Of a DNA stretch of 64,000 nt, positions 1 through 58,333 are shown piece by piece. This DNA is from a virus. Taxonomy: Duplodnaviria > Caudoviricetes. Every line of letters begins with the position of its first letter. The first letter of the stretch is position 1. The notes beneath the pieces were generated by a model, which worked only from the letters and a program-made list of their open reading frames with translations, did no database searches and had not been told where the DNA came from. The stretch is from positions 1 through 64,000 of the IMG/VR virus record IMGVR_UViG_3300029288_001872; one strand, given 5' to 3'. The position numbers were made by a program, and so were the translations under genes.

Positions 1-1
1 C

Positions 2-1105
2 AATAAAGGACCGAGAGAAAAGTACATAAAATACTTAATTGAAAATGGAGTGGGGGTCTTTGTAGGCGGAACTAGAAAAGAAGAAACAACTATGCAATAT
101 GCTGATACACTTAGAAAATCTCAAATAGTCATTAATTTTTCACCTTTAGGTCAATATGGTTGCCCGTTGAAAGGAAGGTCTTTTGAAGCGATATGGTGTG
201 GTTCTTTATTGATGGAGCCATCTGGTTCTTTTCTTGAATATCATTTTACACCGTATTCTGATTATGTCCCATATGATAATGAAAATGATTTGTTGAATAA
301 GGTCAGATATTTTAGTGCAAACAAAGAAGAAAGAGAATTGATTGCAAATAGGGGATATGAAAGAGCTATTCAAAAATATAATCCATTTTCATTTTGGAAT
401 AAAATATTTAATGACTATTTGATTCCATACGACTTGAATCTTGATATGCAGAATATTCGTGGATTATTGGATTTCTTTATCTCTAAAAAGAAAGAAGTAT
501 TTTGCAATGATTTTGTTTTCATCAAAGAAATTTCATATTTGATTGAAAATTTAAACATCAAAGAATTTTGGGAAACTGGAAGTTATTTAGGTCATTCGTC
601 TGATTTCATAAAAAGTTTATTTCCGAAACTGGATGTATTCAGTTGTGACATTCATGAAGGTTATCTTGAAACAGCAAGAAATAATTGTCCTCTAGTTGAT
701 TATAAATTGATTGATTCTGTCAATTTTCTGAAAGAAAGAATTGATAATTATTCTGTTCCAACTTTTGTTTTCTTGGATGCACATGGACATGGTGGTGGTT
801 TGCCATTAGAAAAAGAATTGCAATTGATAGGAAATTCTGGTAAAGAATTTATAGTTTGTATTCATGATTGTAAAATTTCAGGAAGAAATATTTTTGGTTG
901 GGATTCTTATGATGGGATAGACATAAGCACTGATTTGATAACTAATATTTTAGACAAAACCAAATGTGAATTTGATATTTTTATACCAAGTCAACTATAT
1001 TGTCATAGTCCATTACGAGGAAGATGTTATGTTATAATCAACAGTGATAAAATCCATTATAGCAAAATGATTAGTGAATTATTTACTTCCCTAGAGGAGT
1101 TGTAA
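2..1105 (+). CDS. 5'-truncated glycosyltransferase (GT-B, CgeB/YkvP-like C-terminal domain) fused to a class I SAM methyltransferase-like domain
   Basis: Frame is open from nt 2. GT part has 'SQIVINF...KGRSFEAIWCGSLL...EERELIANRGY'; MTase part has 'ETGSYLGHS' and 'FLDAH'. Confidence 0.7.
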   Translation, partial: NKGPREKYIKYLIENGVGVFVGGTRKEETTMQYADTLRKSQIVINFSPLGQYGCPLKGRSFEAIWCGSLLMEPSGSFLEYHFTPYSDYVPYDNENDLLNKVRYFSANKEERELIANRGYERAIQKYNPFSFWNKIFNDYLIPYDLNLDMQNIRGLLDFFISKKKEVFCNDFVFIKEISYLIENLNIKEFWETGSYLGHSSDFIKSLFPKLDVFSCDIHEGYLETARNNCPLVDYKLIDSVNFLKERIDNYSVPTFVFLDAHGHGGGLPLEKELQLIGNSGKEFIVCIHDCKISGRNIFGWDSYDGIDISTDLITNILDKTKCEFDIFIPSQLYCHSPLRGRCYVIINSDKIHYSKMISELFTSLEEL

Positions 1106-1115
1106 TAAAAGTTGT

Positions 1116-1197
1116 GGTCTGGTTGGGTATGGTCAGGTGAGGTTGGGTAGGGTCTGGTCCGGTAAGGTAGGGTCCGGTAAGGTGTGGTAAGGTGAGG
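1116..1197 (+). repeat. (GGTNN)16 pentamer-phased G-rich tract
   Basis: 16 consecutive GGTNN units at 1116-1195 plus a terminal GG; intergenic, with stops in all three + frames. Confidence 0.95.
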
Positions 1198-1236
1198 GTG
1201 CTAATCCTTTAACTAATTTCACTAAAGGATTAGCAC
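1198..1236 (+). terminator. Perfect 14-bp hairpin directly after the pentamer tract
   Basis: GTGCTAATCCTTTA / TAAAGGATTAGCAC with an 11-nt loop, followed by AATTTTT. Confidence 0.65.
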
Positions 1237-1273
1237 AATTTTTAAAAAACTTATTCTTAAATAAAGGGAAAAC

Positions 1274-2260
1274 ATGAAAACAAAAATCGCCATATTTATT
1301 CCAACGTGCAATAGACCAGAGTTTTTACACAGAGCATTATTATATTATAATAGCAAATCTGAATTCTTACAAGATGTAATCTTCCATATTTATGATGGTT
1401 CTGATAAAACATCTTATAATCTAAATAAAAAAGAAGTTAAAAAATATAAAAATCTGAATATAAATCATGTATGGTTTGAAAATCAGAAGGATGAATTCAA
1501 CAGGTTTGTAGAATCTACTAAAAACATTCAAGAAGAGTATATTTTACAAGTAGGTGATGATGATTTCATAATTGTTGAAAGTCTTAAACCAGCACAGATA
1601 TTTTTAGATTCAAATAAAGACTATGCTGCTTGTAGTGGTTTGAGAATGTCTTTTGTGTTAGAAAATCCTGACGAAAAACAAACCAAAGGAACCAATTTAC
1701 ACATAACAAGGTCTGTGCCAGGACCATATTGGCCTATTAATGATCCAATAGGTTGTTTCAGGTCATATATGAGAAGTGGAATTCCAATGCAGCATTTTCT
1801 TGTTAGAAACGAAGTATATAAAAAAATGTATGCTCATTTGGAAAAAGAAGAATTTAAAACACCATTACTATCCCAAGATTTGCTTCCTTGCGCGATTCTG
1901 TCTTTAAGTGGCAATATCAAAAGATTGGATTTTGTTGTTTCATTTGCGCGCCAAGAAAGCAACTTGTCTACATATAAATATTTAGACGAGATAATGACTG
2001 ATGATAGTTTTTCTAATAACCTTGTGTTGACTAAAGAATTATTAGTAGATAAGATTAAAGATTTTGTAGGATTGGATGAAGCAAAAAAGATAGTTGATAG
2101 CGAATTTGTAATAAGATTTATTCAATTGCTAGAATGGACTAGAGATGTGAAATATAAACCGCAAGGAAGGTATCCATTAGAAGGGCATGATTTTATCCCT
2201 TCTACACAAGCCTATTATCACAATATAATTAAAGAATTATTTCAATTGTGCAAGAGGTAA
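1274..2260 (+). CDS. GT-A fold glycosyltransferase (TIGR04440-like)
   Basis: 'IPTCNRPEFLHRALLYY', 'DGSD', 'GDDDF' (DxD). Confidence 0.8.
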   Translation: MKTKIAIFIPTCNRPEFLHRALLYYNSKSEFLQDVIFHIYDGSDKTSYNLNKKEVKKYKNLNINHVWFENQKDEFNRFVESTKNIQEEYILQVGDDDFIIVESLKPAQIFLDSNKDYAACSGLRMSFVLENPDEKQTKGTNLHITRSVPGPYWPINDPIGCFRSYMRSGIPMQHFLVRNEVYKKMYAHLEKEEFKTPLLSQDLLPCAILSLSGNIKRLDFVVSFARQESNLSTYKYLDEIMTDDSFSNNLVLTKELLVDKIKDFVGLDEAKKIVDSEFVIRFIQLLEWTRDVKYKPQGRYPLEGHDFIPSTQAYYHNIIKELFQLCKR

Positions 2261-2266
2261 TTTATT

Positions 2267-3622
2267 TTGTTAAATGTATTACTAATAAATCCACAAACGC
2301 CTAATTATATATCCAACAAAGAATATATAATGCCACCTTCTTTGTTGCATCTATCTCATCATTTGCAATCTACCATGACTGCAAATGTAGATATATTGGA
2401 TTACAATACTTGGAAAGCAGCGCCTTTACATTCCATAGATAATTTTGATGAATATGATTATGTTGGAATAACAAATCTTTTTTCTGGACATTTTCAATCT
2501 ACAATGGAAATTGCCAAAACAATTAAAGAAAAAAGTCCAAAAACAAAAATTGTTGTTGGTGGAATACACCCAACTATTTTTCATAAAGATATTATAGACA
2601 ATTGTGAATTTATAGATTATGTTATCATAGGTGAGGGAGAATATTCATTTAGAAAATTATTAACAAATGAGTCCACTGATGGTATTTGTTATAGAGTTGG
2701 AAAGAAAACTTTTGTAGAACCAAAAACTTGTTTCATAGAAGATATTAATACTGTGGCACCACCAATATTGGGTTATCAAAGTATTGATTTTAATGATTAT
2801 GCTTATAGCAGAAATGCTTGGTACAATCCAAAAGGTTTTGATTTATCACATTCAGTTGAAGTGCCAATTTTAACTAGTAGAAGTTGCCCAAATAGGTGTA
2901 ATTTTTGTTCCATGTTTTTAGTGATGGGTCCAAAAATTAGATTGAGAAATCCATATATAGTAGTTAATGAAATAGAATGGCTGTATAAAGAATATGGTGT
3001 TAAAATGTTCACAGTGATGGATGATAATGTGACATTAGTTAAATCTCATATCAAAACGATATGTAAAGAAATAATAAAACGAAAATTGGACATATCTTGG
3101 CAGACACCAAATGGACTGATGATAAGAACATTGACGCCAGATATAATTGATTTGATGTCAGAATCAGGATGGTATCGTTCAATGATTGCTATTGAGTCTG
3201 GCAATGATTATATTAGAAATGAAGTGATGAGCAAAAAGGTATCTAAAGAAAAAATTTATGAAGTGGTGGAATATATAAAGAAAAAACATAGTCATGTGTA
3301 TCTACGTGGTCTATATATTATGGGAATGGCTGAAGATGATGGGGCAACGCTGCAAGATTCATTGGACATGATAGAGAACTTACAGACTGATACTGACAGC
3401 GTTGCGAATATTATGTCATTTCCAAAGACTAAAGTATTTGAACAAGCAGTTAGAGATAATTTATTTTTTGAAGATGTAAATATTGGCAATTTGTGGTGTG
3501 AGAAAAGAATGGACTACAACGACAATAAAAAGTTTATAATAAAACCCTATAAAATGACTTTAGAAGAATTAAAAGATTGGAGGGTTAAATTTGATACCGC
3601 AATTGAAAATAAAAGCAAATGA
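2267..3622 (+). CDS. Cobalamin-binding radical SAM protein (class B methyltransferase-like)
   Basis: B12-domain motifs 'VVGGIHPT' and 'GEGE'; CxxxCxxC in 'SRSCPNRCNFC'; 'IESG'. Confidence 0.9.
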   Translation: MLNVLLINPQTPNYISNKEYIMPPSLLHLSHHLQSTMTANVDILDYNTWKAAPLHSIDNFDEYDYVGITNLFSGHFQSTMEIAKTIKEKSPKTKIVVGGIHPTIFHKDIIDNCEFIDYVIIGEGEYSFRKLLTNESTDGICYRVGKKTFVEPKTCFIEDINTVAPPILGYQSIDFNDYAYSRNAWYNPKGFDLSHSVEVPILTSRSCPNRCNFCSMFLVMGPKIRLRNPYIVVNEIEWLYKEYGVKMFTVMDDNVTLVKSHIKTICKEIIKRKLDISWQTPNGLMIRTLTPDIIDLMSESGWYRSMIAIESGNDYIRNEVMSKKVSKEKIYEVVEYIKKKHSHVYLRGLYIMGMAEDDGATLQDSLDMIENLQTDTDSVANIMSFPKTKVFEQAVRDNLFFEDVNIGNLWCEKRMDYNDNKKFIIKPYKMTLEELKDWRVKFDTAIENKSK

Positions 3623-4319
3623 AGTTAGAAGAAAAGTTCTTGAAAATTGCTATAAATATAAAAATAGCCATTTATCGTCATGTTTATCCGCCGTGGACAT
3701 TATTTCAACGCTATACTTTGGCGGATTTATTGGGAAAGGAATTGGGAAGTTTGTGTTGAGCAAAGGCCATGCTAATGAAACATTATCAACAGTATTGGAA
3801 ATGATGGGGGTTCAAAGGGTTATACATAGTGACCACCCTGAATTTGGGAATCCTGGAATTGAAACAACAACAGGTTCATTGGGACAAGGGCTTGGAATAG
3901 CTTGCGGAATGGCTTTGAGTAATAAATTGAATAATTCTAATGAGATAATCTATTGTCTCATTGGTGACGGAGAAATGATGGAAGGTCTCAGCCAAGAAGC
4001 CATCCATTCTATTTATGATTTAGATTTACCTATTAAAGTATTGATAGATAAGAATTGGTATGCTTCTGAAAGACAACCAAGTTCTTTGTTATTTGAGACT
4101 GTATTTGAAACATTAGTAAATGGGCATGATGTAGAAGAAACATACAATGCCTTACAAACAGATGAAAAAGTAATTGTGTGTGAAACTACAAAATGTTTTG
4201 GACTTCATAGAGTACATGATATAAATATAATAAATTGGGATATGATACATTATCTTTGTGTTAATGATGACAACATAGAAAGATTTAGGAAGGAATTGAA
4301 TGACTACTCAGAGAGATAG
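3591..4319 (+). CDS. Split transketolase, N-terminal ThDP-binding subunit
   Basis: 'HLSSCLS', 'SKGHA', 'TGSLGQGLG', 'GDGE' ThDP motif. Confidence 0.9.
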   Translation: MIPQLKIKANEVRRKVLENCYKYKNSHLSSCLSAVDIISTLYFGGFIGKGIGKFVLSKGHANETLSTVLEMMGVQRVIHSDHPEFGNPGIETTTGSLGQGLGIACGMALSNKLNNSNEIIYCLIGDGEMMEGLSQEAIHSIYDLDLPIKVLIDKNWYASERQPSSLLFETVFETLVNGHDVEETYNALQTDEKVIVCETTKCFGLHRVHDINIINWDMIHYLCVNDDNIERFRKELNDYSER

Positions 4320-5154
4320 ATTTTTTAATACCATTGGCAATGCGTATAAAAATGGTCGCGAAGATTTGATTATCCTAACTTGCGACATGGGCGCGGCTGC
4401 ATTAAACCAGTTTAAGAAAGATAAAAATTTTCTTCTCAACTTAGGGCCTGTTGAGCAACTAGGCGCTTGTATGTCAGCCGGTTTAGCCTTGCAAGGTAAA
4501 AAACCATATTTATACGGCATTGTTCCTTTTATAACAGGTAGGTGTTTGGAACAAATAATGGTAAGTATTTGTTCACAGAATTTGCCGGTTACTATTGTTG
4601 GAAGTGGCGCAGCTTTGTCCTACGATCTTGCCGGAGCAACTCATCATGGACTATGTGATTTAGGACTAATGCGCTGCATCCCAAATATGACCATAGCAAA
4701 TATTTCCACTCTTGAAATGGCAGAATATTATGCGAATTATTCATTAGAATGTGAAACACCACTATATATTAGATTAGATAAATATAAAGACAATGGTGTT
4801 TTACCAAACGAAGAAGGTTTTTTTTATTATAGAATACCTTCTAATAATTATCCTATAGTAATAACTACAGGAGCTATTACAAACTATTTAAAATCTATGC
4901 TTCCGTTAGATTTTGGGTTAATGGAAATATATAATTTCCCTTGTAAAGAAAACAATCTACTTGCTTGTATAGCACAATCTCCTTGGTATAATAAACTTAT
5001 ATCTGTTGAAGAAAGTTATAAAATTGGAGGACTTGGAGATTATCTGTTTTCTTTAGGTTTAAATGTAACCAAGATTGGTTTTGACAATTTCTGTGAAGCT
5101 AAACCAAGAGAAGAATACTGGAAATATTTACTAAGAGAGGTATTAAATGCTTAA
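4300..5154 (+). CDS. Split transketolase, C-terminal (pyrimidine-binding) subunit
   Basis: 'GPVEQ', 'GLALQG', 'GATHH', 'YIRLDK', 'VEE...GGLG'; overlaps the N-terminal subunit. Confidence 0.9.
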   Translation: MTTQRDRFFNTIGNAYKNGREDLIILTCDMGAAALNQFKKDKNFLLNLGPVEQLGACMSAGLALQGKKPYLYGIVPFITGRCLEQIMVSICSQNLPVTIVGSGAALSYDLAGATHHGLCDLGLMRCIPNMTIANISTLEMAEYYANYSLECETPLYIRLDKYKDNGVLPNEEGFFYYRIPSNNYPIVITTGAITNYLKSMLPLDFGLMEIYNFPCKENNLLACIAQSPWYNKLISVEESYKIGGLGDYLFSLGLNVTKIGFDNFCEAKPREEYWKYLLREVLNA

Positions 5155-5482
5155 AGATAAAAATAGTTATAATAAAATGATCGAAGGAGAAATAGAAAAA
5201 TTAAATTCTATAATAAGAGATAATAACTTAACTTGTTCTTGTATGTTCTCTACAAATTCAGAATGTAGAAAATGTAAATTAATAGACAAGATTATTAAAT
5301 TGCAGGGAAGTTTATTATGAAATCAAAATTCACTAAATGGAATTGGATGTTGGCCTATGCTACTTCTAAGAGAGCACAAGCCATAGCAAAAGATATGGGA
5401 GTTAGCGACAAACTATTTATAGAACCTATAAATCTTGATGAATTATTGCCAAAAGAATTTATGAAGTTAAAAAGGAAAAAAA

Positions 5483-7129
5483 ATGCTTAAAGACATCACA
5501 CTCTATATTCCTACATATAATAGGAGTCAATTTCTTAATCGTTCATTAAAATATTATTCAACTGTCAAATTCGATGGTACAATTCTTATTGGTGATAGTA
5601 GCAACAAAGAAGAAAAAAAATTAAATAAAGAAGTAATAAATAAATATCCAGATTTGAATATTAATTATCACCATTTGAAACTTCCATCTGACCACCATGA
5701 TGCAGTAAAAACATACAGACTTTTGGATAAAATTAAAACACCTTATATAACTTTTGCTGGCGATGATGATTTTCAAATACCTAATGGCCTTAAAATGTGT
5801 ACTGAATTCCTCGATTATTCACCAGATTATGTTGCAGCACATGGCCATAGATTGAATTTTACAATAGATGATACAGTAAATGGAAATGTCATAGCCTTGG
5901 ATTCTCATCCTGGATATGATTGGACCAATGAAGATGACCCAATTAAAAGATGGCAAGAATATTTAAGATGTGGAGTAGCTACTACATATTATGTCCATAG
6001 AACAGAAAATTGGAAAAAGTATTATTCCTATTCACATCTGGCTAAAAGCAATTATATCGGCAATGAATTAATCCCATGTTCTTTATGTGTTTTGTCTGGT
6101 AAAATTAAAAGAATCGAATGTTTGTCTACTGCTTTTCAAAGAGATAATCCCATAAGGTCTTTCTCTTTTGTCAAAACTACTTTATGGGATTTGATTAATG
6201 GAGAATATTGGAGAGATTCTGTCAAGTTTTTTGAAGAAGCAGTTACGTCTATATTGTCTGATAAATTTGAAGTTAAACAAATTAAAGAATTATTTTATCA
6301 AGAATTTTGGTATCACTGTCTATTGATTATGAATGGGCAATTTAATAGTAGATATGGTGAGAAAAAAGATGAACCAACTACACGAATTTTAGACTTATCT
6401 ACTATGAGTGAAGATGATGATTTCTATCCAATATATCAAGTTTTGATAGAAAATTCCAATGCTGAAATACTTAGTAATTATTTGAAGAAGATACAAAAAT
6501 TGGATATAAGAGAAGGCTCAACAAATGATGATTTTATGACTTTAATAAACTTAGCTAAATCTGTGGAAAGACCAGGGATGCAAGCGGTGGAAGTCGGGTC
6601 TTGGAAAGGCGCAACTGGTGGAGCAATAGGACAAGTGCTCAAGGAAAATGACGGAAAGTTGTTTTGTTGTGATCCGTGGGCAAATGCGACTTGCAATGCA
6701 GACCATTCAGATATATTAGAGATATTTAAAAAGAATATTTCTGAATTAGAGTTGGAAGATAATGTTGTTATCATAAGAGAGCAGTCAATAGATGCATATA
6801 AACATTTTGAAGATGAATCTCTTGATATTGTATTTCTAGATGGATTGCATATGTACAATTATATTGCTCCAGACATAATTTACTTTTACCCTAAAGTTAA
6901 AAAAGGCGGGATAATTGCTGGACATGACTTAAATATACGATATGAAACTCTCAATTCAGAACAACAAAAAGAAGTTGATGAAAATATAAATGTTAATTGT
7001 GTTACCGTTAAATCATTAGGAAGACAAGTTCATTGCGGGGTTTGCAAAGCAGTTTATGACTACTTCGGAAGTAATTATAATTCTTTTGACAATCCAATGA
7101 ACGCAGTTTGGTGGGTGGTTAAAGAGTAA
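5483..7129 (+). CDS. TIGR04440-like glycosyltransferase fused to a C-terminal class I SAM methyltransferase (Methyltransf_24-like)
   Basis: 'IPTYNRSQFLNRSLKYY', 'GDDDF'; C-terminal 'EVGSWKG', 'FLDGLH', 'GGIIAGHD'. Confidence 0.85.
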   Translation: MLKDITLYIPTYNRSQFLNRSLKYYSTVKFDGTILIGDSSNKEEKKLNKEVINKYPDLNINYHHLKLPSDHHDAVKTYRLLDKIKTPYITFAGDDDFQIPNGLKMCTEFLDYSPDYVAAHGHRLNFTIDDTVNGNVIALDSHPGYDWTNEDDPIKRWQEYLRCGVATTYYVHRTENWKKYYSYSHLAKSNYIGNELIPCSLCVLSGKIKRIECLSTAFQRDNPIRSFSFVKTTLWDLINGEYWRDSVKFFEEAVTSILSDKFEVKQIKELFYQEFWYHCLLIMNGQFNSRYGEKKDEPTTRILDLSTMSEDDDFYPIYQVLIENSNAEILSNYLKKIQKLDIREGSTNDDFMTLINLAKSVERPGMQAVEVGSWKGATGGAIGQVLKENDGKLFCCDPWANATCNADHSDILEIFKKNISELELEDNVVIIREQSIDAYKHFEDESLDIVFLDGLHMYNYIAPDIIYFYPKVKKGGIIAGHDLNIRYETLNSEQQKEVDENINVNCVTVKSLGRQVHCGVCKAVYDYFGSNYNSFDNPMNAVWWVVKE

Positions 7130-8779: not shown

Positions 8780-9481
8780 TTGGCTAAGAAAACTAAATCC
8801 AAGAAACCTAAAGGCATCACTATAGAAGAATTCTTAAAAAACCTTAACACTCTAGATTTGTTGGACGGGAATTTTTCTGATAATGATGCTTTAGCTCTTA
8901 TGAAGTTAGCTAAAGAAAGCGTTAAAGACCAAAGAACTTTTGTTACATTTTTGGAAATGGGAGCATGGAAGGGAAAATCTACTGCTTGTCTTAGTGTTGT
9001 AGTTAGTAAATTTTTAGAGGGGAAAATTTATGTAATTGATCATTTTCAAGGAGCACCAGAGACTACTAGTGAACAGGTAGCAAAGACAAGTGATGTTCAT
9101 AATATATTTAAAAATAATATGAAAACAATTAATGCTTGGGACAAAGTTGTTCATTTAATAGAAATGGGAATTGAAAATGCTTCATGTGTTCTACAAGACA
9201 ATACATTTGATTTTATTTTTATAGATACAGATAATAGATATAAAATTTATAAAGAACATATTCAATATGCTGTAGAATTTCTTAGAATAGGCGGGACGGT
9301 TTGTGGAAGAAATTTAGTTGCAAATTATCTAGAAGTCAAAAATGAAGTTGATGAAGAAATAGATAAAGAATATTCACAAAAATATAAATTACATCCCGGT
9401 GTTATTAAAGCGGTCTTTGAAGTTTTTGGAAATGATTATAAAAGAGTTGAAGATAGTGGTTTGTGGTATTGGAGGAAATAA
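8780..9481 (+). CDS. Class I SAM methyltransferase (Methyltransf_24-like)
   Basis: 'EMGAWKGKST', 'IDHF', 'FDFIFID'; paralogous to the C-terminal domain of 5483-7129. Confidence 0.8.
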   Translation: MAKKTKSKKPKGITIEEFLKNLNTLDLLDGNFSDNDALALMKLAKESVKDQRTFVTFLEMGAWKGKSTACLSVVVSKFLEGKIYVIDHFQGAPETTSEQVAKTSDVHNIFKNNMKTINAWDKVVHLIEMGIENASCVLQDNTFDFIFIDTDNRYKIYKEHIQYAVEFLRIGGTVCGRNLVANYLEVKNEVDEEIDKEYSQKYKLHPGVIKAVFEVFGNDYKRVEDSGLWYWRK

Positions 9482-9492
9482 AGGAGGAATAA

Positions 9493-9699
9493 ATGAATAG
9501 AAAAATTAATGGTGGGAATATTCATACCCTTCTTGGTGTGATGAAAGAAACAAAAGGTCTCGATGGGTGTGACCATGATTTCCCACCAGAAAGTCAAAGA
9601 ACAAGAAGAATAAAAAATGGTGGAATTTGTCTTCGATGGACTTGTAGTAAGTGTGGTAGGATGGTTTATTATGCTAAAAGATATTCTTCTGGAAATTAA
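9493..9699 (+). CDS. Small hypothetical protein with CxH/CxxC
   Basis: AGGAGG RBS; 'CDH' and 'CSKC'. Confidence 0.55.
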   Translation: MNRKINGGNIHTLLGVMKETKGLDGCDHDFPPESQRTRRIKNGGICLRWTCSKCGRMVYYAKRYSSGN

Positions 9700-9728
9700 T
9701 TAATTAATTAAACAACAAGGAGGAATAA

Positions 9729-10043: not shown

Positions 10044-11021
10044 ATGAGGGGTCCAGATAAAAAACCAAGAAAGAAAAGAAGTCCAAATAAAGTTTCTCAT
10101 CAAAATAAACAAAAATTAAATTGTGATATTTGTGGAAAGGAAATTTATAGATGGCCAACGCAAATAAAAAGTGAAAAAGTATTCTGTTCTTGGAAATGTG
10201 CAAATGGAAGAAAAGATAGAGAATCAATAAAAGTATCAGATTTATCTATTTTGTTAGAAGAAAAATTAGAAAGTTATTACTGGATTGGTTATTTGATGGC
10301 AGATGGACATTTCCAAAATAGAGGACAAATAGCTTTAGTTTCTATAGATATAGAACATCTTGAAAAATTTACTGGCTTTGTAAAATATGAAGGCGAAAGA
10401 AAAAATAAAGGAAATATTTCTTTAATGGATAAAGTTGTTGTTAAAAGATTAATGAATAAATTTAATATTTCACATAGAAAAACTTATGAACCTTGTGATA
10501 TTAATATTTCAAATTTAGATTTGTTTGTTTCTTTGGTTATTGGCTTTATAGATGGAGATGGTAGTATTAGAAAACAAACAAATAGGAATGATTGTTTAAT
10601 AGCCATAAAATGTCACAGTTCTTGGTTTGAAAATTTAAAAATAATGAATAGAATTATGAGTGAGATAATAAATATTAATGAAGCAGATGTGGTTAGAATC
10701 AATAAAAAAGGCTATGCTTTATTAATATGGTCAAACAGTAAAGTATTGCGCTTTTTAAAAGAATTCATACTTGCTACTAATCTTCCTGTATTAAAACGTA
10801 AGTGGAATAAAATCGATGAAGGTTTTATTAGTGGACAAGAACTTGCTGCTCAAAGAGTGGGTAGAGTTAAAGAATTATTAGACAAGGATTATAACAAAAG
10901 TGAAATTGCAGAAATTTTAGGTGTTAATAAAAGTGCAGTGACTCTTATTATTCAAAGAAATAAAATTCCTGCTTATATTGGCAGAAAAGAAAGGAGGGAA
11001 AATTATGTCAGTCTTTTTTAG
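10044..11021 (+). CDS. Free-standing LAGLIDADG homing endonuclease with N-terminal Zn motif and C-terminal HTH
   Basis: Two LAGLIDADG helices ('WIGYLMADG', 'IGFIDGDG'); 'SEIAEILGV' HTH. Confidence 0.85.
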   Translation: MRGPDKKPRKKRSPNKVSHQNKQKLNCDICGKEIYRWPTQIKSEKVFCSWKCANGRKDRESIKVSDLSILLEEKLESYYWIGYLMADGHFQNRGQIALVSIDIEHLEKFTGFVKYEGERKNKGNISLMDKVVVKRLMNKFNISHRKTYEPCDINISNLDLFVSLVIGFIDGDGSIRKQTNRNDCLIAIKCHSSWFENLKIMNRIMSEIININEADVVRINKKGYALLIWSNSKVLRFLKEFILATNLPVLKRKWNKIDEGFISGQELAAQRVGRVKELLDKDYNKSEIAEILGVNKSAVTLIIQRNKIPAYIGRKERRENYVSLF

Positions 11022-12071: not shown

Positions 12072-12148
12072 GGTCTGGTTAGGTCAGGTGAGGTGAGGTA
12101 AGGTTGGGTGGGGTGCGGCAAGGTATGGTAGGGTGTGGGAAGGTAAGG
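12072..12148 (+). repeat. Second pentamer-phased tract, (GGNNN)15, mostly GGTNN
   Basis: 15 units at 12072-12146 (13 GGTNN, one GGCAA, one GGGAA) plus a terminal GG. Confidence 0.95.
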
Positions 12149-12178
12149 GAACTGACTCATTTACAGATGAGTCAGTTC
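12149..12178 (+). terminator. Perfect 12-bp hairpin directly after the second tract
   Basis: GAACTGACTCAT-TTACAG-ATGAGTCAGTTC, followed by ATTTT. Confidence 0.65.
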
Positions 12179-12220
12179 ATTTTAAACTAAGAATCTTATG
12201 GTTGTTAATAAGGAGGATTA

Positions 12221-57406: not shown

Positions 57407-58333
57407 TTTACTTCTCCTTTGACTTACCATCTAGAAGTCAGTATTTTTAAAGATGGTATTTTTATTTTTACTTCAAGTTTTTAATTAATCTTCATCCCAT
57501 AAAGTTCTGGATTCTTATCTTCAAATCTTTTCAATCTAACAAAGGAATTTATAACTCTATTCAACATATCTCTCAATTCGTCCGCATCAAATTCGTTATA
57601 TAATTCCTCGTCCATTTTAACTTCACAAAAAATTCCCAATCCATCGTTTTCTGTATCAAAGGCTAACATATTTTTATATCCTCTAGAATTTAACAGATTT
57701 AATATATTCTGACATATCTGAAAAATAGGCTGGGTGTTTCTCAACTTCCCATCCCTTCCTTTTGGCGGTTTCAGCCAATATTTTTAACGCTTCTTCTGAC
57801 TTCCAACATAATGGATTGCCGTCTGGCCCATTAATCCTTTCCCAACCTCTACTCTCCCAGCCGCATTCCTCTTCATTCTCTAACACCCTTGACACTTTTG
57901 TGAACACATAATTATCTGAACTATAAGCAAATTCACGAAGATAAAGAACACCTTGTTGCATCACTTCTTTCGAGAGGTGTAGAATCTCTACTGGTTCTTC
58001 ATTGTTGTTTTCTGTCATTATTCTGTTCTCCTTTTCGTTTAATAGGAGGTTTTTTCTTTTTATTATCATCCCTATGTATCATTTTTGTGAGCAAAACTTG
58101 AAGTGGAATTAGATCACCCATTTGTCATTCACTCTCAACAATTAATCTACCAGAAAAAACAAATACTGGTTCATAACTTTCAGCACAATCCAAACAGAAA
58201 AAAGTTATGGACAATTCCCTTAAAGAATCATCATCCATTTCAACTTCTGTGTTTGGAGATACCCTATCACTTCCACAATAAGGACATAATTCAGGACTAC
58301 CTTTAATTTCTTTGATATCCATTTTAATTTCCT

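Follow-up and report, generated by a model that had tools for sequence, protein, structure and literature searches.

Genomic setting of the pentamer tract

Near the left edge of the window, the 64,000 nucleotides (64 kb) that open the uncultured phage record IMGVR_UViG_3300029288_001872, a glycosyltransferase-like open reading frame (ORF) and a GT2-type glycosyltransferase gene flank a tract of GGT-headed pentamers joined to a hairpin. The whole record comprises 189,632 bp at 34% G+C; its two ends (189499–189632 against window positions 1–134) share 126 identical overlapping bases, followed by three differences in the last eight, so that a record classed as 'linear' is in effect circular or terminally redundant, and the glycosyltransferase-like gene upstream of the tract spans the junction. 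A related phage, hereafter the sister (IMGVR_UViG_3300014204_000113; 187,988 bp, with terminal repeats), was reached via relatives of the product of this upstream gene; approximately 96 kb of the two genomes aligns by megablast, with a mean identity of 86.5% (about 87% overall). Window positions 1–6000 gave no blastn match among cultured phages, and no Rfam family was detected in the window at the gathering threshold. The features on which the following discussion draws are:

left edge–1105, + strand: glycosyltransferase-like ORF, with Pfam Glyco_trans_1_2 in its N-terminal part
840–1105, + strand: diverged 3′ end of this upstream gene, from the identity between own and sister genomes
854–892, + strand: own copy of the proposed target site, codons VCIHDCKISGRNI, a mismatched 'escape' version lying in frame in the flanking gene
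1103–1108, + strand: double stop TAA TAA of the upstream gene, read from the sequence
1106–1273, + strand: 168-nt insert carrying the whole element and absent from the sister, from the pairwise alignment of the two genomes
1116–1195, + strand: pentamer tract of 16 consecutive in-phase GGTNN units, all 16 beginning GGT
1116–1180, + strand: units 1–13, the variable part proposed as guide, with NN read against the sister genome
1181–1197, + strand: constant 3′ units GGTGT GGTAA GGTGA GG, common to several copies
1196–1197, + strand: GG directly 3′ of unit 16, read from the sequence
1198–1236, + strand: tail hairpin, with a perfect 14-bp stem (1198–1211/1223–1236) and an 11-nt loop
1237–1243, + strand: AATTTTT (AAUUUUU in RNA), directly 3′ of the hairpin
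1262–1276, + strand: start codon (ATG) of the downstream gene, preceded by a new ribosome-binding stretch (AAAGGGAAAAC), from the sequence and the ORF list
1274–2260, + strand: downstream GT2-type glycosyltransferase gene, from the ORF list and Pfam
12072–12185, + strand: copy 2, with 15 units, GG, a 12-bp perfect hairpin (12149–12178) and ATTTT

An initial annotation of this DNA had placed a non-coding tract of 16 GGTNN units, fused to a 14-bp hairpin and a T-run, at 1111–1243; the coordinates are accurate and the composition is as described, with stops interrupting the tract in all three + frames and no ORF of at least 40 aa covering 1106–1273. The variable pairs of the 16 units read CT TG AT CA GA TG AG CT CC AA AG CC AA GT AA GA, ten different dinucleotides in all; the further proposal that the phase of GG(T) is constrained and NN is free holds. 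The motif (GGNNN)5GG is matched 23 times in the window, as against none in 100 dinucleotide shuffles, and all 23 matches fall within this tract and the second tract at 12072–12148.

The tail hairpin by itself is predicted to fold at −17.9 kcal/mol, and a stable 14-bp stem-loop running directly into AAUUUUU resembles an intrinsic (Rho-independent) terminator and an RNA 3′ end, making 1198–1243 a predicted terminator. A consensus terminator scan did not list this hairpin, probably because a loop of 11 nt is longer than the maximum of 8 that the scan allows, and a consensus promoter scan returned no convincing promoter directly upstream of or next to the tract. A TAAAT-like box is present 0–15 nt upstream of many copies of the element in this AT-rich genome.

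Further copies and their variable tails

Approximately nine GGT-NN tracts are distributed through the whole genome (starting at 1116, 12072, 115703, 136845, 185027, 186370, 187584, 188736 and 188839), adjoining unrelated genes. The genome-wide pattern search advocated in the initial annotation, which asked for hairpin association and a consistent orientation, returned both: nearly all copies are fused to a hairpin and T-run, and (GGNNN)5GG occurs 64 times in the forward direction and never in reverse, every tract lying on the + strand. The units GGTGT GGTAA GGTGA end the copies denoted c1 (the 1116 tract), c136 and c186, with close variants ending the others.

In nearly all copies the hairpin follows flush after the terminal GG; it shows neither sequence conservation nor an evident pseudoknot. 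Every tail begins with G and ends with C, with a closing pair that is always G–C, and A(A/G)TTTT follows the hairpins of most copies, while the stem sequences differ completely from copy to copy. Among ten distinct tails, pairing holds at 98 of the 100 outer stem positions, whereas exchanging arms between copies leaves 55 paired on average, and each outer stem position displays three to four pair types, i.e. covariation. A compensatory G–C to A–T change separates the tails of c1 and c187. The latter copy (187563–187700) is likewise an insertion absent from the sister, with a hairpin paralogous to that of copy 1; the single compensatory change between these paralogs suggests that scaffolds are duplicated and then re-coded. 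In the hairpin of copy 2, RNAfold adds a thirteenth pair, U–G.

Beyond this genome, GGT/GGC-NN tracts of at least nine units were found on at least 117 viral contigs in IMG/VR, most of those listed being back-to-back arrays; a strong hairpin and T-run directly 3′ was present in 15 of 259 tracts among the matches listed.

Reading of the tract against the sister phage

The code tested joins the NN pairs as NNx, with one target base skipped after each pair. Read in this way, the first 12 units match the sister genome at 117934 in 24 of 24 positions, the first 13 units in 25 of 26, and all 16 in 26 of 32 (81%). The match falls within the sister's ortholog of the gene directly upstream of the guide, in frame and with the skips on codon third positions (sister codons CTA TGT ATT CAT GAT TGC AGA CTT CCG AAA AGA CCT ATT; LCIHDCRLPKRPI), the guide spelling codon positions 1–2 of LCIHDCRLPKRP(I) in the sister's glycosyltransferase-like gene. 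Skips of 0, 2 or 3 nt achieved at best 16–17/24 anywhere in the sister for 12 units and no more than 18/26 for 13; 200 guides of shuffled unit order averaged 16.6 and peaked at 20/24 against the sister, and 200 random guides peaked at 19/24.

The constant 3′ units (1181–1197) do not match the sister target and, being near-constant between copies as well as unpaired, look like a handle. The guide has the coding-strand sense of the target gene, and could thus pair with the template DNA strand and not with the mRNA, which fits DNA targeting. An exact scan of IMG/VR for the 13-unit target of copy 1 gave no match (the sister's site differs at unit 13); a metagenome scan with the upstream protein recovered the sister again and one 66% relative only. 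This 66% relative and a relative on a further contig (L127) carry third and fourth alleles of the site (LCIHDCKIPGRAI and LCIHDCKIPSRKV), scoring 19 and 20 of 26, respectively, and neither is accompanied by a guide.

An altered gene end and a new insert beside the guide

The site in the phage's own upstream gene (854–892), 262 nt upstream of the guide, matches the first 13 NN pairs in 17 of 26 positions (65%), a score that no more than six positions genome-wide attain. Scanned in full, the guide finds no self-target at ≥80%, the best own-genome score being 20/32 against a shuffled maximum of 22, i.e. chance level. The changes in the own site that break the match are non-synonymous: a CIHDC motif is kept in all four alleles, and the variable patch directly after it holds the amino-acid changes. 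Synonymous changes are invisible to a code that skips every third base, so that amino-acid replacement is the expected route of escape.

The own and sister sequences are 91.0% identical at the nucleotide level over positions 2–400 and 89.7% over 401–839, falling to 63.5% over 840–1105, a level found between distant lineages, and recovering from about position 1300; the breakpoint sits just 5′ of the target site. Judged from these identities, the 840–1105 gene end appears to be of other descent than the remainder of the gene. In the sister, the stop of the upstream gene overlaps the ATG of the next gene as TAATG, leaving no spacer; here the two genes are separated by the 168-nt insert with its new ribosome-binding stretch, and the first codons of the downstream GT2-type gene differ from those of the sister. 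The drop in identity and the insert together make the altered gene end and the guide look like one block, and the guide, by its sequence, appears to spell the very version of the gene that this block replaced. Guide, resistant gene end, terminator and new ribosome-binding site would then be inherited as a single cassette of approximately 450 nt.

Probable identification as a solo VIPR guide-RNA gene

A VIPR system combines a Vipr gene, vap and a GGY/NN guide; Vipr is a stand-alone RAMP protein that polymerises on a guide RNA (vrRNA) composed of 9–16 GGY/NN repeats and a structured 3′ tail (10.64898/2026.04.26.720920; 10.64898/2026.04.26.720927), with one protomer per GGY repeat, the two G and the pyrimidine being flipped into protein pockets (10.64898/2026.04.26.720927). 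The NN pairs read double-stranded DNA, skipping every third target base; natural targets are competing mobile elements, in which the skips fall on wobble positions, and the guides lack a match of ≥80% in their own genome (VIPR bioRxiv preprints, 2026). Solo vrRNAs, located more than 20 kb from any vipr gene, have been reported on F5 satellites and VIPR-null SUSP1-like phages, where they redirect the Vipr of another element, a use termed 'guns for hire' (10.64898/2026.10.15.759431).

Against this background, the 1116–1243 element is most probably a stand-alone ('solo') vrRNA gene of a VIPR system, a reading to which we assign a probability of roughly 0.8. Its 16 invariant GGT units with variable NN stand within the 9–16 units of the founding paper; its target in the sister is matched above 80% under a one-base skip, with the skips on codon third positions; and a Vipr-type RAMP gene, P0002, is present in the same genome. 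This nearest Vipr homolog lies approximately 35 kb away, as measured across the overlapping record ends, which by the >20 kb criterion makes the 1116 copy a solo vrRNA. Counting against this assignment are the absence of a convincing promoter directly upstream and a cost to the phage itself, in that the predicted terminator would interrupt the glycosylation operon.

On the mechanism published for VIPR, the element would be transcribed as an RNA of ~120–130 nt ending at the hairpin and U-run; Vipr would polymerise on this RNA with one protomer to each pentamer, burying GGU and presenting NN; and 12–13 variable NN pairs would each read two bases of double-stranded DNA, with every third base skipped. 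The likely role of such a complex would be the silencing of the target gene in a rival phage during co-infection.

The element shares with published vrRNAs the GGY/NN pentamers, a target read with a one-base skip and a competing phage as target, may also share a structured 3′ tail, and departs from them in several respects: the tail, an invariable pseudoknot in the SUSP1 clade, is here a plain hairpin and U-run that differs in every copy; the guide stands alone in a glycosylation operon, ~35 kb from vipr; the arrays at the phage's own vipr locus are looser, consisting of G-N-Y triplets with GGCAGG delimiters; and the last three units are constant and unpaired with the target. With the published solo vrRNAs (10.64898/2026.10.15.759431) it has in common its distance from vipr, a self-match below the match to the rival, and the possible use of a foreign Vipr; those guides, however, sit at vipr–vap1 deletions or on satellites, whereas this genome is Vipr-positive, and their targets (REP decoys, vipr genes, other vrRNAs or satellites) differ from the sister's orthologous genes matched here. 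Class 1 CRISPR crRNAs on a Cas7 backbone offer a further parallel, sharing a RAMP filament on a guide RNA and periodically flipped bases; their pairing, however, involves five of every six bases, whereas here two of five guide bases would pair with two of three target bases, and the surroundings showed no repeat-spacer array and no cas1, cas2 or any other cas gene.

Vipr homologs and the likely protein partner

P0002 (219 aa; 154992–155648) is the only Vipr homolog of the genome. Its structural model reached a pLDDT of 84.5 with an alignment, as compared with 35.6 from the single sequence, and the fold matches listed were all CRISPR effector complexes, mostly the Cas7-type backbone of type III Csm/Cmr and type VII systems (Foldseek E about 3e-5, TM about 0.4); a PDB sequence search with P0002 gave no match. 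Its family of ~7,000 proteins has no Pfam domains, the closest members being ~60–70% identical, and is related to a second Vipr-like family (hhalign probability 99.65%, E 5e-25; profile search E 1e-16) that includes three small Vipr genes of the sister. The G-loop reads GEGRP in the P0002 family and GDYRP in the small Viprs. In GC-rich phages (L144, L145 and L147), relatives of P0002 adjoin RecA, SSB or polymerase genes and are flanked by strict GGC-NN arrays with the delimiter GGCA(A/G)G.

The arrays beside P0002 itself are composed of G-N-Y triplets, GGT among them, with GGCAGG delimiters; no fewer than two guides in these arrays score 17/18 against the sister, so that the phage's own system seems to be aimed at the same rival. 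The sister, for its part, has no ortholog of P0002, encoding instead its three small Viprs (about 176–190 aa), which are quite different from P0002 and two of which are flanked by GGT-NN guides. Non-orthologous VIPR loci are inserted at neighbouring sites in the two phages (154917–157324 here; 82429–83701 and 86948–88660 in the sister).

The sister carries an ortholog of the copy 2 guide at 128190, in which 4 of the first 12 NN pairs are different. A small Vipr-like gene of the sister (126578–127132) lies ~1 kb upstream of this ortholog, and the sister's 126399–127155 corresponds to 9473–9716 in the window, only 243 bp, which suggests that copy 2 is the orphan of a mini VIPR locus. Window 10044–11021 encodes a LAGLIDADG-type protein (325 aa, with an HTH), likely a homing endonuclease insertion; 10047–10994 has no sister counterpart.

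P0002, as the single Vipr homolog of the genome, is the likeliest partner of the 1116 guide; the assignment is uncertain, given that the sister keeps similar solo guides yet encodes three quite different Viprs. The GGT-NN solo guides may instead capture the rival's small Viprs in mixed infection and turn them on the rival's own genes, an improbable but substantive alternative. The own genome lacks the small Vipr type that in the sister is flanked by GGT-NN guides, having only the 243 bp where the sister carries its third Vipr upstream of the copy 2 ortholog, and its own Vipr is served by arrays of another format (G-N-Y, GGCAGG); redirection of another element's Vipr is, moreover, what published solo vrRNAs do (10.64898/2026.10.15.759431). 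Set against this, the occurrence of GGT within the own arrays and of strict GGC-NN guides beside P0002 relatives indicates that P0002 may accept GGT-NN, and the presence of such solo guides in the sister too means that they are not restricted to Vipr-poor genomes.

Alternative explanations for the element

A solo guide that is now a relic, left after recombination and neither expressed nor used, would account for the lack of a clear promoter in the consensus scan, for the degeneration of some copies (that at 115703, and TGT and AGT units in c185 and c186), and for the absence of a detectable target for copy 2, for which no site at ≥80% was found in the sister genome and an exact IMG/VR scan was also without match. 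A decaying element would not be expected, however, to keep all 16 GGT units intact together with a stem perfect over 14 bp and full (24/24) agreement with a present-day allele, and this explanation is accordingly very unlikely for copy 1.

The initial annotation had also raised a TRAP-like site, at which an oligomeric protein would wrap the GGU triplets and control the adjacent terminator of the glycosylation operon. Part of that proposal stands, since a protein that recognises one triplet in every 5 nt is probably involved: the sites of the Bacillus trp leader share the binding geometry, with an oligomer, one triplet per subunit, ~5-nt spacing and a terminator nearby, and the tract here has a flush junction to a terminator-like hairpin within an operon. 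The regulatory part does not: TRAP recognises GAG/UAG triplets and not GGU; no PF02081 match was obtained in the genome at E ≤10, whereas control genomes gave matches; no alternative antiterminator pairing was seen; and the NN positions, free spacers in a TRAP site, here encode a gene segment and point to DNA targeting. The sister, moreover, runs the same operon without the element, and the other copies adjoin unrelated genes. An attenuator, for which the position within the operon had been thought suitable, is thus highly improbable; the element lies instead immediately 3′ of the phage's own, changed version of the gene whose sister ortholog the guide matches.

Equally improbable, as a structural, replication or recombination signal, are tandem two-tier G-quadruplexes in RNA or DNA, which the 17 GG runs with 3-nt loops could form and the strict strand bias (64 forward, 0 reverse) might favour, but which require neither the invariant T after GG nor NN pairs that spell a gene, do not agree with the flipping of GGY bases into protein pockets in VIPR complexes (10.64898/2026.04.26.720927), and gain little from the minimum free energy fold of the complete element, whose advantage over shuffled sequences is weak (z = −1.99); for a replication or recombination signal in particular, nothing was found in support.

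Reciprocal matches and significance

The solo vrRNA reading of copy 1 extends to several of its fellow guides, which likewise match the sister's orthologs of their neighbouring genes: c186 at 30/34, c136 at 22/28 and c187 at 20/26. Whole-guide scans of the own genome are at chance for every copy, the informative comparisons being local ranking and the sister genome; for six of eight guides (c1, c136, c185, c186, c187 and c188b, each with a located target or partial match), the best own-genome partial match ranks between first and sixth of ~380,000 positions and falls no farther than 360 nt from the guide, while c2 and c188a yielded no target or nearby best partial match. Unlike the published solo vrRNAs, at least eight solo guides are scattered here through one genome, and for six of them the own, diverged version of the target or best-match gene is no more than ~360 nt away. 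Matches in the reverse direction were also found, the sister guide at 82587 scoring 29/36 against own position 158203, and that at 68927 scoring 19/22 against 136738.

The pairing of a guide with a resistant allele could be understood, tentatively and on odds that we place well below even, as a selfish, gene-drive-like cassette that replaces the end of an ancestral gene and carries a guide against the sequence replaced. Were this so, unconverted genomes would be silenced in mixed infection and recombinants with the cassette favoured, and some new means of copying codon positions 1–2 of a DNA sequence into a guide would be implied; in a sub-variant, the guide would act through the rival's own Vipr. 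The resulting linkage of weapon and immunity, like that of toxin–antidote or homing elements, would arise from an RNA guide and a few non-synonymous changes.

VIPR was first described in 2026, and most of what is known of its natural biology comes from a single E. coli phage with its satellite; the present case would extend it to an uncultured ~190-kb phage in which scattered solo guides are directed at the corresponding orthologs in a near-identical sibling, whose guides match back. Solo vrRNAs as such have already been published; what appears new here is the layout of a guide beside an escape allele, which text searches of the founding VIPR preprint and of 10.64898/2026.10.15.759431 did not turn up, and the variable terminator tail, which was not found in the 2026 VIPR preprints. 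The layout offers a testable model of how VIPR guides spread and diversify and of how phages escape a code blind to synonymous changes, and a vrRNA tail that can be a simple, freely varying terminator hairpin is relevant to both the detection and the engineering of guides.

A further guide of the sister (167630, − strand) matches window positions 58083–58118 (− strand; GDLIPLQVLLTK) at 21/24 and the sister's own copy at 20/24, and so does not discriminate between the two phages.
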